From: Escherichia phage 4E10
Length of the DNA stretch: 64,000 bases
Direction: 5' to 3' (one strand)
Sequence record: OQ689735.1
In this document: positions 5,681-19,548 of the stretch, piece after piece
How the letters are laid out: each line of letters starts with the position of its first letter
Position numbering within the stretch: position 1 is the first letter of the stretch
Position numbers and translations under genes: made by a program
The notes under the pieces: generated by a model
Seen by the model: the letters and a program-made list of their open reading frames with translations, nothing else
Told to the model about the DNA's origin: nothing
Databases searched by the model: none

Positions 5681-5950
5681 TTATCTAAGTAAGCAGTATG
5701 CTTGGAACACTTTCTCCATCATCTTTTTAAATTCATGAATATCTATGTAATGATCATTAATATCAGCGCGATATAAAAAGTCTAAAAACTTTTTATGGGT
5801 ATTAGAATATTTACTTCCAGTTAATTCAGAAACATGGCTTTCCCAATATCCAACACCAGTTTTATTTGGGAAAAATGAAATTTTCATGTATTGGTCAACA
5901 TAGAAAATACCAAAATTTTCAATAGCAATAGAAATATTAATTAATTTCAT
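5681..5950 (-). CDS. Hypothetical protein
   Basis: ORF track 89 aa. Confidence 0.5.
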   Translation of the reverse strand: MKLINISIAIENFGIFYVDQYMKISFFPNKTGVGYWESHVSELTGSKYSNTHKKFLDFLYRADINDHYIDIHEFKKMMEKVFQAYCLLR

Positions 5951-11731: not shown

Positions 11732-11853
11732 GTCCCATCTCCATATCAATTAAGTCATTTATCGTTGGTTCATTATATACTGTTTCTTCATCAGTGTAAA
11801 CCGGTTCTTCCGGCTCTGGCTCTACAGTTTCCCATCTAGCCGCCCACCAAGGT

Positions 11854-12048
11854 TTAACCCCGAAGCTTATTAAGTTCTTCATCATCAATCCAGGATTCTA
11901 GTCCTGTTGGCAGGTCACATTCAATTTCCCAAAGAAGTTCTTCAATTTTCTGAAGACGATCTAGTTCTTCGGCTGGAATAGTAACCATTGATGGAGTTCT
12001 TGATACACTAATATCGTAAATCATATTTACCCCAGTTTGACCATGCAA
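11854..12048 (-). CDS. Hypothetical protein
   Basis: ORF track 64 aa. Confidence 0.4.
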   Translation of the reverse strand: MHGQTGVNMIYDISVSRTPSMVTIPAEELDRLQKIEELLWEIECDLPTGLESWIDDEELNKLRG

Positions 12049-12242
12049 TCACCGTATTTCCACTTAGAAATAGACTTTTCACCATTAGAATAATAAACTT
12101 CGAGTTTAGCACGATTATTTTTAATTTGAATAACCTTGGCTGTCATCAAAGTTCCATACCCATAATAAACTGCAACTTCATCACCTACATATACCGCGCT
12201 TCCGCGGTAATCATGAATATAGTCAGTTCCTTCGAGCATCAT
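12027..12242 (-). CDS. Hypothetical protein
   Basis: ORF track 71 aa. Confidence 0.45.
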   Translation of the reverse strand: MMLEGTDYIHDYRGSAVYVGDEVAVYYGYGTLMTAKVIQIKNNRAKLEVYYSNGEKSISKWKYGDCMVKLG

Positions 12243-12746: not shown

Positions 12747-13047
12747 TTTCTTCTCGGTCAAATCGGTGTTTACAATGGCGACATTTATAACGAAGATTAC
12801 TAGTCTGCCAATGGACCAATTGCACCTGTTCAGTTCCACATTCAGGGCAATTAGGAACGTTTTTAGAAGCCCTTTCACGACGTTCAACCATGACCATTAC
12901 AGAATCCCAATTAACAGGAGGGCTATAATCATCACAACCATGAATCTTTCCACGCATTTCCAAATTGTCTTCTTCACCAGCCATAATAATTTTAATTAGA
13001 CTAGAATTACTTGAAGCTGCAATGTCTTCTAATAGACGCTTTTTCAT
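12733..13047 (-). CDS. Zinc-ribbon protein (CPECG...CRHC)
   Basis: ORF track 104 aa; four Cys in a CxxC-N-CxxC arrangement. Confidence 0.5.
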
Positions 13048-13973
13048 TTCAATACCTCAATAGCATTGCGTAAACCATTTGCTTTTGCATTAAGAGCTTT
13101 TAACAATTTGGTGTGTTCTGCAATTTGGGCTTCAACTTCAATCAAACGAGCATTGAGATATTCGCGTTCTTCGCTCAGGTTATCAACCTTTTCTACTTTA
13201 GGTTCTTTTACAACTGGCTTATACGTATTAGGGTTCTTCAGTTTAATTAGAATGCGTGAGCTGTATAACATTGAACCATTATCTTCGGTTTCATCATACA
13301 TTTCCACTACGTCCATAATTTTTAACATCATGCGAAGTTTATAAGACAACGAACGAATAGTTTTGTTGTGCTTATTAATTTCTTTAGCTGTCATGGTGCC
13401 GAGATTACGTGAGTAATAATAAGGAACCTGGATATTAATTAATACTGATGAACCACCTGGCTTGTGTGTTACTTCATCAGCAATAACCCAGTCCTTAACA
13501 TGAACTGTATTTGTACGGTCATCGCCTGCGGTAAATAGTTTACGAGCATGCTTAAAAAGCATATTCACTTGGTCATTGAATTGACAAGCGAATTTATCAG
13601 CAAATTTAGTTTCAGGAATGGTAGATAACCAATCAGCTAAATGGGTCTTTTTAACATCGTTAACAATAGTAAATTCAACCAAATCGGTTATAGATGTCGC
13701 AGATTTAATGAAGCTCGGCTTCATAAAGTTTTTAATGTTATCGCGAGCTACAGTAGAAGATAACATACGAGAACGTTTAAACCATTCAAGCAAATTGCCT
13801 AACGAATGAGAATAAGCATTTTGAGTATCTTTACAGATATGATTTTCCTGGCCAACATATTGAAGGAAATCACGAAGAATATTATTGATTACTGCTCTGT
13901 GTCCTATCTGATAATTACGATGTTTAGTAATAAGACTATCAAAATAATCAATATAATGTTTACGAGTTTTCAT
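13044..13973 (-). CDS. Paralog-family protein A (variable N-terminal domain plus C-terminal coiled coil)
   Basis: ORF track 13044..14012; likely start MKTRKHY at 13973; C-terminal heptad-rich segment [44 protein letters not shown]. Confidence 0.6.
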   Translation of the reverse strand: MKTRKHYIDYFDSLITKHRNYQIGHRAVINNILRDFLQYVGQENHICKDTQNAYSHSLGNLLEWFKRSRMLSSTVARDNIKNFMKPSFIKSATSITDLVEFTIVNDVKKTHLADWLSTIPETKFADKFACQFNDQVNMLFKHARKLFTAGDDRTNTVHVKDWVIADEVTHKPGGSSVLINIQVPYYYSRNLGTMTAKEINKHNKTIRSLSYKLRMMLKIMDVVEMYDETEDNGSMLYSSRILIKLKNPNTYKPVVKEPKVEKVDNLSEEREYLNARLIEVEAQIAEHTKLLKALNAKANGLRNAIEVLK

Positions 13974-14025
13974 GTTCTTCTCACTTGGTTGATGATTTAT
14001 ACTCCGAGCCATCCTTGGCTTTAAA

Positions 14026-15027
14026 TTACTTAATTAACTGTAAAGCTTGTTCCAAACGATCCAGGCGATTAACAGATTCTTCCCAAATCCTTTTAGCCTG
14101 CTCATATTCTTTCTGCGCTTTATTAGAAATTTCTAGAGCTTCTTTATAAGCTTTTTCTAATGCAATAACTTCTGGACGAATTTCTACCGATTTAGGCGAA
14201 TCATCAAGATTATCCATTAGTTCCTCAAGTGTAGTTTCTTCTTTAGGAGTATTCACAATTTCTTCACATTTTTGTTGGTAAATTTCTTTATCAGTTAGTG
14301 AATAAGCACACTTTACTTCACGAAGACTAACTACAATTTTATATCCTTCCCAACCGCATATATTCTTAAAAGGATAAGTATGAATATTTTCTACTGTTTC
14401 CATACAAAGTAGTGCAGTCTCTAATTGTCGAGTTATATCACTAGCAATTGAGAAAAATTTATTAATATTCTTTTGGTTAGCGTCTGGTGTAAAAAATTCA
14501 TAATTCACAAAAATAGCTGCTTTATTTTTATCAAGCTCATATTCTTTTATGATAATCATATCAGAAGCCCAAGGATGAATTTGACGATAATCGCCATAGC
14601 ATAATTTAGAAGCTGATTTTAGAATTTGCTTTTTGAAAAGTCTGAAATTACTAATCCAACGACGAGTAAAAATATTCTCAGGGTCTTCTTTAATATTAAG
14701 ATGATAAGAATTAACATCACCGAACCAATTATATCCTACTACATCTTTAGTTCGTTTAATTTCTTTCCCAAAATTACCAAGAATATCCCGATTAACCAAA
14801 TATGAAAGAAGACGAGACTCTTTAAAGGTTTTCTTGATAACATCTTTATCTACACGGCTAGAAATTTTACGAATTTCATGAATAAATTTAGTAGAAGAAA
14901 CAATACTTGCATCAACACTATTGAGCCATTGATTGATAATAGAAAGAACGATATTTTGGCCAAACATCGGTATAGCTTTATCATCAATAACGCTATTGAA
15001 TGATTTGATATATTCGTTACGAGTCAT
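14026..15027 (-). CDS. Paralog-family protein B
   Basis: ORF track 14026..15078; start MTRNEYIKSF at 15027 with GAGGAG site; C-terminal coiled coil ALEKAYKEALEISNKAQKEYEQAKRIWEESVNRLDRLEQALQLIK. Confidence 0.6.
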   Translation of the reverse strand: MTRNEYIKSFNSVIDDKAIPMFGQNIVLSIINQWLNSVDASIVSSTKFIHEIRKISSRVDKDVIKKTFKESRLLSYLVNRDILGNFGKEIKRTKDVVGYNWFGDVNSYHLNIKEDPENIFTRRWISNFRLFKKQILKSASKLCYGDYRQIHPWASDMIIIKEYELDKNKAAIFVNYEFFTPDANQKNINKFFSIASDITRQLETALLCMETVENIHTYPFKNICGWEGYKIVVSLREVKCAYSLTDKEIYQQKCEEIVNTPKEETTLEELMDNLDDSPKSVEIRPEVIALEKAYKEALEISNKAQKEYEQAKRIWEESVNRLDRLEQALQLIK

Positions 15028-15084
15028 ATTAATCTCCTCAGTAGAAAGTAAGAACATTATACCACATCCTTGTGGCAAAGTAAA

Positions 15085-16104
15085 CTAGTTCAGTGCATTT
15101 AGTGCATTGTTCAGTTTAGAACGTTGCTTTGTCAGATTTTGAACCCTTGACTGAGCTTGTTCTAACACCTTTTCAGCTTCTAGCACTTCATTGGTCGCTT
15201 TAACGAGTTCATCATCTACTGCCTTAAGAGACTTCTCAATCGCGTCAGCGTGCCATTTTTCTACAGGTTTAAAATTTGAATTTTCAGTAGGAAGAAAACT
15301 CACTTTATTAAGTTTACATGCATCTATATTGCTTGAGTTATACATCCAAAATTTAGGATCGTTTGATAAGTAATTAGATAAATTTAAGTTATCTTGCACT
15401 TCTTGCTTTTTCTCTTGTGGGACTTCGTCCTTTCTCAAAAAATCGTATTTAAATGAAACGACCATATCAAGTTCATACGTTGTTGTGTCTAATTTAAATC
15501 GCTCAAAACGAGGTAAAATCTTAGAATGAACACTAGCAACAACATCCATATACTTAAATGCTTCTGTCAACTGCGATTTAAGGCATTCGCAAATTGAAAG
15601 AGAATTTTTTGTATTAGGTTTAAAGCTAATTCGTGCAGTTCTATTATTTTCTTTTAATGGTCTTACTTCCATCTGAAGAGTATAACCATCAAATTTCAGG
15701 TTCTTTAAGTTAATGTCAGAACCTTTTAATCGACTAGCTGTCGACAAAATTTGCTTTAATTGTTTACGGAATAGAGCAATAAATCTCCATTCAAGACGGT
15801 AATGATTTGGATTAAAAAATCCTGTTGATAAATCAACCTTACTCTGACCAACGCCTTGAACAAATAGAGGATTTTTATAATCAATAGTTTTACAGAAATC
15901 GGTGAGCTGTTCACGAGCAGTCATTTGCGTAATATATCCAGCTTTATCAAAATGTCGCAACCATTCACTGCTATTCATATACTTAAAGTGAATGGAACTA
16001 TTAACTCTATCAGGGTCTAAATTATTTTGGCACAAAAATGTCATAACATTACGGGTATAGCTGGCATTACGAACCATATCTTCAATTTGAGAACGAGTTT
16101 TCAT
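15085..16104 (-). CDS. Paralog-family protein C
   Basis: 339 aa, ATG with AAGGAA site; starts MKTR like protein A; C-terminal coiled coil ELVKATNEVLEAEKVLEQAQSRVQNLTKQRSKLNNALNALN. Confidence 0.65.
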   Translation of the reverse strand: MKTRSQIEDMVRNASYTRNVMTFLCQNNLDPDRVNSSIHFKYMNSSEWLRHFDKAGYITQMTAREQLTDFCKTIDYKNPLFVQGVGQSKVDLSTGFFNPNHYRLEWRFIALFRKQLKQILSTASRLKGSDINLKNLKFDGYTLQMEVRPLKENNRTARISFKPNTKNSLSICECLKSQLTEAFKYMDVVASVHSKILPRFERFKLDTTTYELDMVVSFKYDFLRKDEVPQEKKQEVQDNLNLSNYLSNDPKFWMYNSSNIDACKLNKVSFLPTENSNFKPVEKWHADAIEKSLKAVDDELVKATNEVLEAEKVLEQAQSRVQNLTKQRSKLNNALNALN

Positions 16105-16112
16105 GGTATTCC

Positions 16113-17000
16113 TTAAGATTTAAGTAAATCAACAATTTTAATTAACTTTTCACGCTCAGATTTAGCTTTACTACTCAATCCAGATAGTCTAAAGATTTCA
16201 TCGTCATATTGTTGAATAGAAATATTCAGCTCTTCAATTTGCTTATTAAAATAATCAATTTGCTCAGAATGTTTTTCGTTACTACGAACTGGTACAGGTT
16301 TTGTAGGCAATTTAGTTGAACTGGATTCATCCGGGCGATAAATTAAAATACAACTTGAACCAATTGGACATTTTGCACCAGATGAATATTCTAATGTTCC
16401 AGATTCTTTTAAAACTTCAAAAGCTAAACAGAGATGATGACCCATATTGACATAATCAGTAGAGCGAGCTCTGATGTAATAATCATCTCCACGAGTACTA
16501 AATTTAAAGCATTTAAGGTCTTCTGTATTATTGGTCTTAAAAATCATTTGTTTATCTAGACCTTTAGCTAATCGAGCGCCTAATGCTAATAATCGTCGTT
16601 GATTTTCCCACAAATCTGCAATCATTTGGTCAAATGATAATTTTGGCATTAGTCGACCATAAAGGTCATATCCTTTATTATAATTACGAAGAATTTCACT
16701 CGCATTAATACGAGACAATGCTCCAATTTTATTAAGGGCTTTCATGATGCGATTAGATAAACTCATTCCAGATCCGTTTGTTCGCTGTAAATGTTTTTCT
16801 AATCCAAATCCAATATCAACTTTAAATTTATCTAAAATTTCAGCATGAACATCTCTGTCAATAACATTCAAATCCAAAGTTGGGTTAAATCTATGAAAAA
16901 ATTTATCTGGCTCTCCACGACGAAGTACAGTCCATTCATTCAATTTTTTATTAACTAAAGATTTAATTACTGTATTGACATTATTAATTACTACTGACAT
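16113..17000 (-). CDS. Paralog-family protein D
   Basis: ORF track 16113..17036; start MSVVINNVN at 17000 with GAGGAAAA site; C-terminal coiled coil. Confidence 0.6.
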   Translation of the reverse strand: MSVVINNVNTVIKSLVNKKLNEWTVLRRGEPDKFFHRFNPTLDLNVIDRDVHAEILDKFKVDIGFGLEKHLQRTNGSGMSLSNRIMKALNKIGALSRINASEILRNYNKGYDLYGRLMPKLSFDQMIADLWENQRRLLALGARLAKGLDKQMIFKTNNTEDLKCFKFSTRGDDYYIRARSTDYVNMGHHLCLAFEVLKESGTLEYSSGAKCPIGSSCILIYRPDESSSTKLPTKPVPVRSNEKHSEQIDYFNKQIEELNISIQQYDDEIFRLSGLSSKAKSEREKLIKIVDLLKS

Positions 17001-17007
17001 ATTTTCC

Positions 17008-17415
17008 TCACTCAATTTCAATTTTACTAAATACACAGAATATGATGGAAAAGACTATATAAGCACCGCATACAGATTGAACTAATACCATTCCAAAGAA
17101 CCAAACAATATTATCAAACCATGTCTGTTTTACGTCGAAAGGACGTAAACTTACAGTAATATTATCACCTTTTTCTATTGAAGAATACATCTCTGGGGAA
17201 ATATATTCACTAAATCTATAACCGTCTTTGAGTTCATATACGGCAATAAACGATAAACTAGACCCCTTTCCTTGAGTTCCTGTAAGGGTATTAACTACAG
17301 TAACATCATAATCTTTATAATGCATATAATCATTAATAGCATAATAACCATATGCAACTACTATACATAAACAACATATCAATAAATTCAATCTTTTAAT
17401 TATCAACTGTTTCAT
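17008..17415 (-). CDS. Two-TM membrane protein
   Basis: 135 aa with N- and C-terminal hydrophobic helices flanking an ~80-aa soluble domain. Confidence 0.55.
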   Translation of the reverse strand: MKQLIIKRLNLLICCLCIVVAYGYYAINDYMHYKDYDVTVVNTLTGTQGKGSSLSFIAVYELKDGYRFSEYISPEMYSSIEKGDNITVSLRPFDVKQTWFDNIVWFFGMVLVQSVCGAYIVFSIIFCVFSKIEIE

Positions 17416-17470
17416 AATAATCTCAATTAAAAGGGCTTAGAACCATTATACCATCCTTGGTATAAAGCGG

Positions 17471-17998
17471 TTATGCGAGTACCGTCTTTAACCGTTCTTC
17501 AAACTTCCGAAGAGTATTTTGGCGTTCAGCTCTTTGCTTTTTGTAAGTTTCAATACGCTCTGAAATGAGAGTGTATCGTTCATTTACTGATTCTTTCATA
17601 AAATCAGGAATTTCACGAGAAGCTTTAATCTCATCAAATTTATCAATAACAGCTTGCTCTTCAGCAATTAAGTTATCATACATTAAAATATCTTTCTTGA
17701 TGAACTCAATATCTTCTTGAGTTACACGAGATAATTTAGATGCTTTATCCTTTTTGTACTGTTCGTTAGTATCACGAGACCAGTGTAATGTACGATTTTT
17801 ATTCGTATTTTTGTAAATTTCTACAATACCAATTTCATCAATAATAACGATCCAATTCCAACGGGATTTGTAAATTTGTCCTCCATCAACAGTGATTTCA
17901 CCTCCGATTGAGATGTCATTAAAGAACTTGCTTTGTGCTTCAGATTTAAATTTACCATCGTTGTAATTTACCAGGTTGAAAATATCTTTAGCATTCAT
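17471..17998 (-). CDS. Hypothetical protein with C-terminal coiled coil
   Basis: ORF track 17471..18058; the N-terminal extension is translated promoter sequence; real start MNAKDIF at 17998 with GGAGGAACA site. Confidence 0.55.
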   Translation of the reverse strand: MNAKDIFNLVNYNDGKFKSEAQSKFFNDISIGGEITVDGGQIYKSRWNWIVIIDEIGIVEIYKNTNKNRTLHWSRDTNEQYKKDKASKLSRVTQEDIEFIKKDILMYDNLIAEEQAVIDKFDEIKASREIPDFMKESVNERYTLISERIETYKKQRAERQNTLRKFEERLKTVLA

Positions 17999-19522: not shown

Positions 19523-19546
19523 AAAAAAGGGAGCCCGAAGGCTCCC
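19523..19546 (-). terminator. Strong rho-independent terminator downstream of the nucleotidyltransferase gene
   Basis: Minus strand GGGAGCC-TTCG-GGCTCCC followed by TTTTTT. Confidence 0.7.
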
Positions 19547-19548
19547 TA

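Follow-up and report, generated by a model that had tools for sequence, protein, structure and literature searches.

T4 is the best-studied phage, and many of its genes are without an assigned function. What four adjacent genes of this kind might do, and whether they belong together at all, is the question raised by a locus in Escherichia phage 4E10 (sequence record OQ689735.1), of which a stretch of 64,000 nucleotides, hereafter the window, was analyzed. By its sequence this phage is a Tequatrovirus (T4-like), and over positions 12900-17500 its best matches among coliphage and Shigella phage genomes share 96-97% identity with it. An initial annotation, made from the letters of the window alone, had noted here four consecutive co-directional genes, interpreted their products as divergent paralogs ending in coiled coils, recognized no characterized family among them and suggested defence, counter-defence or receptor-decoy functions. 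We present evidence that these four adjacent orphan genes, nrdC.3 to nrdC.6, form one family that includes a gene with a published role in overcoming the host defence protein Dsr1, and that their products are most likely inhibitors of host anti-phage proteins.

All four genes lie on the minus strand. In the order of their coordinates they are nrdC.3 (13044-13973; 309 amino acids (aa), isoelectric point (pI) 9.4; match to phrog_1435 with an expectation value (E) of 3e-117), nrdC.4 (14026-15027; 333 aa, pI 6.9; phrog_1435, E 2e-166), nrdC.5 (15085-16104; 339 aa, pI 9.2; full-length match to Pfam DUF7235, E 2.7e-114) and nrdC.6 (16113-17000; 295 aa, pI 9.2; phrog_2257), the most divergent paralog. 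The gaps between them are, in the same order, 52, 57 and 8 base pairs (bp), the shortest being that between nrdC.5 and nrdC.6, and the stop codon of nrdC.3 overlaps the start of nrdC.2 (ATGA, 13044-13047). The predicted masses of the products are 34-40 kDa each. The orthologue names come from annotated relatives and from the T4 gene order, in which these genes stand between nrdC.2 and nrdC.7/nrdC.8, bearing out the earlier suspicion that they correspond to T4 nrdC.x genes. The end of the array had been placed at 17036 by using a GTG-extended open reading frame (ORF); a GAGGAA ribosome-binding site and the agreement of homologues indicate that nrdC.6 likely starts instead at the ATG at 17000.

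The suggestion of divergent paralogy had leaned on short recurring motifs, of which the MKTR start is present in nrdC.3 and nrdC.5, and YIxxFxSxI in nrdC.3 and nrdC.4. In pairwise BLASTP comparisons only nrdC.3 and nrdC.4 are linked (E 4e-7). We also made profile-profile comparisons with hhalign, using profiles built from public-database homologues and six other phage loci. These recovered the relationship of nrdC.3 with nrdC.4 (98%, E 3e-14) and that of nrdC.4 with nrdC.5 (93%, E 3.5e-7), the latter also with the heads alone after removal of the coiled-coil tail (88%, E 2.8e-6). Direct comparisons of nrdC.6 with the other three were not significant in either BLASTP or hhalign (P 0.007-0.02), although even these weak alignments place the same conserved motifs in register. 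Hence, the homology of nrdC.6 was established via intermediate families and structure. The Kanagawavirus group (IME523, Kosakonia 305 and PEi20) matches nrdC.6 over head plus tail (93%, E 2.7e-7), nrdC.5 (90%, E 2e-6) and the Marfavirus group (96-97%, E 1e-9 to 5e-11), and the PM2/JD18 group matches the nrdC.6 head (94%, E 1.8e-7), nrdC.5 (97%, E 3.8e-10) and nrdC.4 (94%, E 2.4e-7). Both of the groups linked to nrdC.6 also match nrdC.4 and nrdC.5. The Marfavirus group in turn matches nrdC.4 (96%, E 3.2e-9) and nrdC.5 (97%, E 3.5e-10), and in a tblastn search of the whole phage collection IME523 and Marfa are linked at E 4e-7. When hidden Markov models (HMMs) made only from these outside groups were run against the 170 ORFs of the window, the significant matches were exactly the four array genes.

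As a negative control we used conserved ORFs of 256-262 aa from the single-copy phage blocks, which had been candidates for relatives; they proved unrelated, matching nothing in hhalign (P 0.1-0.6). Such an ORF sits a few genes from the family copy, within the same block, in five single-copy loci (L011 4269-5042, L012 5052-5840, L013 4247-5017, L014 3458-4243 and L015 1916-2686). We also considered, and rejected, NrdC.8 (17471-17998; 175 aa) as a possible fifth paralog: like the array proteins it has a helical C-terminus, a long charged helix (…KKQRAERQNTLRKFEERLKTVLA), yet none of the tail, family or superfamily HMMs matches it.

The heads of the family share three collinear motifs, I (h..A...L..F), II (F/h....hL...[AS][RK]L..G) and III (L..hL..h), which were read from the hhalign alignments, an HMM alignment to the IME523 protein and a superfamily alignment. 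AlphaFold2 models of NrdC.4 and NrdC.6 (predicted local distance difference test scores 82.4 and 77), compared by element order, show the same succession: the N-terminal part is helical and closes with a pair of helices, after which comes a small beta hairpin region; three helices and two strands are next, then one long helix and another two strands; and finally a low-confidence linker leads into a long C-terminal helix. In a Foldseek search of viral predicted structures the NrdC.4 model retrieved the NrdC.6 protein of phage JS10 (E 3e-5, probability 1.0), along with uncharacterized 300-370 aa proteins of T4-like phages infecting Yersinia, Enterobacter, Pectobacterium, Acinetobacter, Klebsiella, Erwinia and Serratia, two of which are neighbouring entries of phage Acj61. 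The profile network, the shared element order of the models and the Foldseek match together lead us to conclude that nrdC.3, nrdC.4, nrdC.5 and nrdC.6 are true paralogs derived from one ancestral gene. Along with the single-copy genes of Kanagawavirus, Marfavirus, Jiaodavirus and PM2 they constitute a new superfamily with a defined architecture, namely a helical plus alpha/beta head, a disordered proline-containing linker and a C-terminal heptad helix of about 50 residues. This relationship of nrdC.3-nrdC.6 is described in no paper found in the literature searched.

The public databases hold these proteins as separate, uncharacterized entities. Each is a full-length member of a Pfam or PHROGs family: PF26897 covers NrdC.3 and NrdC.4, PF23882 (DUF7235) NrdC.5, and PF26899 NrdC.6, and PHROGs 1435, 2351 and 2257 cover the array, with only nrdC.3 and nrdC.4 sharing one of them (1435). 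The DUF7235 match of NrdC.5 spans the full length and scores 382 bits against a gathering threshold of 30 bits; the products of nrdC.3, nrdC.4 and nrdC.6 gave no match to this Pfam model at E values up to 1. The remark that the proteins belong to no characterized family is thus right as to characterization, and needs correction in that families containing them do exist. None of the array proteins has a significant match among the enzyme families of Pfam and NCBIfam, in PADLOC or among the solved structures of the PDB. The PADLOC matches were confined to BrxC and BrxF models, and these were weak and partial (E 0.002-0.04). Among 1.84 billion representative proteins, an exhaustive profile search found only 18 matches, all from the same phage group and with no cellular or annotated relatives among them, indicating a very narrow sequence family. 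The weak resemblance of NrdC.3 residues 30-86 to the N-terminal SAM-like core-binding domain of XerC/XerD-type tyrosine recombinases (NCBIfam E 0.0016, Pfam E 0.075) falls far below the curated cut-offs. All four array proteins are named "thioredoxin" in many GenBank and UniRef records, a label that seems to derive from the gene symbol nrdC.N; in Pfam (E up to 1) and NCBIfam (E up to 0.1) we saw no match to a thioredoxin or glutaredoxin family. One further database entry, Shigella phage Sf25 gp220 (P0058, 378 aa), is a NrdC.6 homologue with 97% identity that is annotated as about 80 residues longer, and the extra length may come from a start codon placed further upstream or from fusion to the nrdC.7 region.

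The heptad periodicity of the predicted C-terminal coiled coils held up in a heptad test, in which 0.86-0.93 of the a and d positions of NrdC.3, NrdC.4 and NrdC.5 are hydrophobic, a value reached by 0-8 of 2000 shuffled sequences. The helix of NrdC.3 comprises residues 262-309 (13047-13190, minus strand; 0.86, 8/2000 shuffles), that of NrdC.4 residues 285-333 (14029-14175, minus strand; helix 285-332 in the model; 0.86, 2/2000) and that of NrdC.5 residues 288-339 (15088-15243, minus strand; 0.93, 0/2000). These three keep a single unbroken heptad register over 48-52 residues. The NrdC.6 tail is interrupted: both the model and the heptad test divide it into helices of 30 and 19 residues (242-271 and 277-295; 16116-16277, minus strand) with a break at LSGLS. 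At least four unbroken heptads within a predicted helix are present, with the helix of NrdC.6 being interrupted. A P-V/A motif precedes the tail in all groups, and the tail ends in L-x-x-A/I-h-x-x-L-K.

The initial annotation had pictured a conserved multimerization handle with a variable head. This describes the situation within each orthologous family, where the tail is the best-conserved part (identity 0.47-0.75 versus 0.40-0.66 for the head), and fails between paralogs, whose tails have diverged as much as their heads. Accordingly, when HMMs of the last 45 residues were built with one family left out, the missing paralog came no higher than 6th, and as low as 27th, among the 170 ORFs, and a homology between paralogs based on the tail alone was not claimable. 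The case for tail homology is made instead by the proteins being collinear over their whole length and by the match of the IME523 tail to those of both nrdC.5 and nrdC.6 in the HMM alignment. A separate observation concerns a 173 aa protein on an 803-bp metagenome contig (P0238 on L008), in which an unrelated N-terminus is joined to a NrdC.5 tail (89% identity in the final 53 residues). Either a genuine domain swap or an assembly artefact of chimeric type may explain it, and a head-swapped protein of this type was found in no complete phage and only on that one contig.

The tails bear directly on the idea that the four proteins assemble through them into one hetero-oligomeric complex with a single function. 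All four carry a terminal heptad helix with the same L-x-x-A/I-h-x-x-L-K ending, and their genes are adjacent, with nrdC.6 and nrdC.5 all but abutting. However, each family has a tail of its own that is strongly conserved among its members, a pattern that fits homotypic pairing better; natural phages carry one, two, three or four copies; and nrdC.5 by itself rescues a T4 clone on Dsr1 (PMC9391042), the account not stating which other paralogs that clone retained. We consequently hold such a complex to be improbable.

The nature of the conserved residues has a bearing on the kind of activity to be expected. Across the superfamily alignment the positions conserved family-wide hold mainly hydrophobic or structural residues (A, L, F, G, I and P), with no conserved set of polar residues. 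This fits a stable scaffold with variable surfaces, and hence a binding protein rather than an enzyme. An enzymatic role, in which the proteins would counter NAD+ (nicotinamide adenine dinucleotide) depletion or modify a host target, has a certain logic, given that Dsr1 is an NADase and that other phages counter NAD+ depletion enzymatically via NARP pathways. As no polar residue set is conserved family-wide and neither an enzyme family nor a solved enzyme structure is matched significantly, we consider it very improbable.

DSR2, a defence protein, detects the tail tube of the phage, and this raises another scenario, in which the alpha/beta core of the head would mimic a virion tail protein. 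The array products would then be early oligomeric decoys that pre-occupy the sensor domains of defence proteins before the real, late structural trigger is made, with the paralogs tuned to different sensors. This scenario, which we rate as a long shot, draws on the modest resemblance of one model to tail terminator or tail completion folds (lambda gpU-like), a lead that was set aside when the second model failed to reproduce it. For the defence-effector and receptor-decoy roles floated at the outset we found no evidence, with no significant PADLOC match for the former.

Comparative genomics provides a further line of evidence, which concerns the accessory character of these genes. We examined position and copy number in annotated regions of T4, NR1, VR20, MM02, PSD2001, ESCO47, ABTNLsp5, Marfa, JD18, IME523, PM2 and PEi20, and found one or more copies of the family at the same position of the nrdC block, between nrdC.2 and nrdC.7/nrdC.8, across the compared phages. 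There are four copies in Tequatrovirus, three in Gaprivervirus and Dhakavirus, two to three in Mosigvirus, and a single one, immediately upstream of nrdC.2, in Kanagawavirus, Marfavirus, Jiaodavirus and PM2. Losses are also seen within Tequatrovirus: LYE-01 (L009 3511-6422) is without nrdC.4, and in Ec_YwIITB1 (L010 4438-5279) nrdC.5 is split into ORFs of 180 and 86 aa. On one 167-kb contig a natural deletion that removed nrdC.4 created a nrdC.5::nrdC.3 fusion (P0056, 299 aa), made of NrdC.5 residues ~145 to 265 and the C-terminal half of NrdC.3. Even the T4 reference (L004, AF158101.6, ~5830-5930) is affected, with a 1-nucleotide deletion in nrdC.6 ('gagctg-atatt' versus 'gagctgaatatt' at window 16113-16200), because of which the annotated T4 NrdC.6 has 275 aa and no C-terminal helices; the coding sequence of the conserved tail persists downstream in the other frame, and the tail is intact in the window copy.

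Between this phage and T4, the ratio of nonsynonymous to synonymous substitution rates (dN/dS) is 0.18-0.29 for the array genes and 0-0.05 for gene 49, nrdC, nrdC.8 and nrdC.9. For nrdC.3 the synonymous divergence (dS) from T4 is about 1.0; its product shares only 61.6% identity with T4 NrdC.3, as against 78% with the Mosigvirus copy. Two deeply diverged nrdC.3 alleles thus exist within Tequatrovirus, which suggests that alleles have been exchanged between genera. The fast divergence attributed to the heads is therefore, in the case of nrdC.3, better explained by exchange of an old allele than by rapid point mutation.

A possible indication of the time of expression comes from the gap between nrdC.5 and nrdC.4, which contains a promoter-like site, (G)TTTACT-17-(TG)TATAAT, on the minus strand (15056-15084; 10 of 12 positions, with TG), followed downstream by a GAGGAG ribosome-binding site before nrdC.4. 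The site has the form of a T4 early promoter, and its resemblance to that consensus would place it in the early class. As the sigma-70 promoter scan as a whole gave no excess over chance (38 sites versus 32 expected), only this intergenic site upstream of nrdC.4 is used here. Further along the block, between nrdC.11 and nrdC.10, the minus strand carries a GC-rich hairpin (AGGGAGCC-CGAA-GGCTCCCT) followed by a T-run (19528-19547), which resembles an intrinsic terminator and is annotated as such in phage NR1.

The key functional datum concerns nrdC.5. Srikant, Guegler and Laub (eLife 2022; PMC9391042) described a T4 clone that, as a result of compensatory deletions, was unable to infect ECOR17 because of Dsr1, a SIR2-domain NADase of this strain, and showed that expression of T4 nrdC.5 alone, termed an early, non-essential gene, rescues the deletion clone on Dsr1 (PMC9391042). 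Hence, the statement that these genes had no assigned function does not hold for nrdC.5, and the earlier guess of counter-defence agrees with the one member tested, whose function was already in print. The NrdC.5 protein of the window is 91% identical to that of T4 over its full length. On the strength of the conserved-residue pattern, the phenotype of nrdC.5, the early-promoter-like site and the way copies are gained, lost and exchanged, we favor the interpretation, with a probability of about 0.6, that the array is a tandem set of early, dispensable, non-enzymatic and oligomeric paralogs, which act as stoichiometric inhibitors of host anti-phage proteins. In this model, a single ancestral gene, comparable to the one copy upstream of nrdC.2 in distant T4-like phages, would have given rise to the tandem nrdC.3-nrdC.6, the genes would be expressed early, and the NrdC.5 orthologue of the window would counter Dsr1 like its T4 equivalent, probably by binding it directly. 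The tail would drive homo-oligomerization and thereby provide avidity against oligomeric defence proteins, and NrdC.3, NrdC.4 and NrdC.6 might each neutralize a different or variant defence protein. Since nrdC.5 disarms Dsr1 and the four genes share ancestry, nrdC.3, nrdC.4 and nrdC.6 are good candidates for counter-defence genes.

Several points weigh against this interpretation. The experimental phenotype is that of one member in four, and of the T4 protein rather than the window's. The binding of Dsr1 by NrdC.5 is a proposal, and the oligomeric state of the array proteins is predicted from heptad helices in sequences and models. The dN/dS values are below 1, and so give no direct signal of positive selection. 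Finally, all array proteins except NrdC.4 are basic (pI 9.2-9.4), which, taken with the weak SAM-like match of NrdC.3, leaves room for a nucleic-acid-binding role; it also led us to reject the notion that they are acidic DNA mimics.

The basic character and the SAM-like match are also what one would cite in favor of a narrower proposal, that only NrdC.5 acts in counter-defence and the other paralogs have unrelated early roles in host takeover, such as nucleic-acid binding or modulation of host enzymes. The literature searched is compatible with it, as it contains no experimental data on nrdC.3, nrdC.4 or nrdC.6: a genome announcement is the sole mention of nrdC.4, and nrdC.3 and nrdC.6 are not mentioned. 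Yet the recombinase matches of NrdC.3 are too far under threshold to lend it much weight, and the frequent loss, duplication and allele exchange are typical of arms-race accessory genes; there are also anti-defence genes in the neighbourhood. One such neighbouring T4-type gene product, gp49.2, inhibits the OLD defence nuclease (PMC13096335). We thus consider a role confined to NrdC.5 unlikely, if by no means negligible. In the window itself, both at 11749-12239 and over the rest, tblastn searches for T4 gp49.2, gp49.3 and the MobD homing endonuclease gave no counterpart; two small ORFs (11854-12048 and 12027-12242) lie instead between gene 49.1 and nrdC.

With the four genes forming one family that includes the anti-Dsr1 gene, three orphan genes become concrete counter-defence candidates, and their shared head plus coiled-coil tail architecture is open to dissection by domain swaps. 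The single-copy relatives in Klebsiella, Enterobacter, Edwardsiella and Pectobacterium phages, together with the copy gains and losses, form a natural series that is useful for studying how one inhibitor scaffold might diversify against host immunity. The set of array genes may also help predict the host range of therapeutic T4-like phages.

Among known systems the closest is T4 NrdC.5, of which the window protein is an orthologue at the same position and in the same Pfam family, DUF7235; it differs at 9% of its residues, and the anti-Dsr1 activity was shown for the T4 allele. The study of T4 NrdC.5 (PMC9391042) presents neither a mechanism nor a structure, nor a relation to nrdC.3, nrdC.4 and nrdC.6. 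DSAD1 of SPbeta-like phages, an inhibitor of the SIR2 NADase DSR2, exemplifies the same proposed principle of a small phage protein neutralizing a defence-associated sirtuin; DSAD1 acts by direct binding. At the family level, Pfam PF26897, PF23882/DUF7235 and PF26899 and the corresponding PHROGs are separate, and here they are joined into one superfamily. Like the anti-OLD protein gp49.2, TifA, Dmd, AdfA and IPIII, the array genes would be early, dispensable, often clustered and lost or amplified under selection (PMC9391042; PMC13096335); in contrast to these, which are single genes as described, the array is a four-member tandem family of paralogs.

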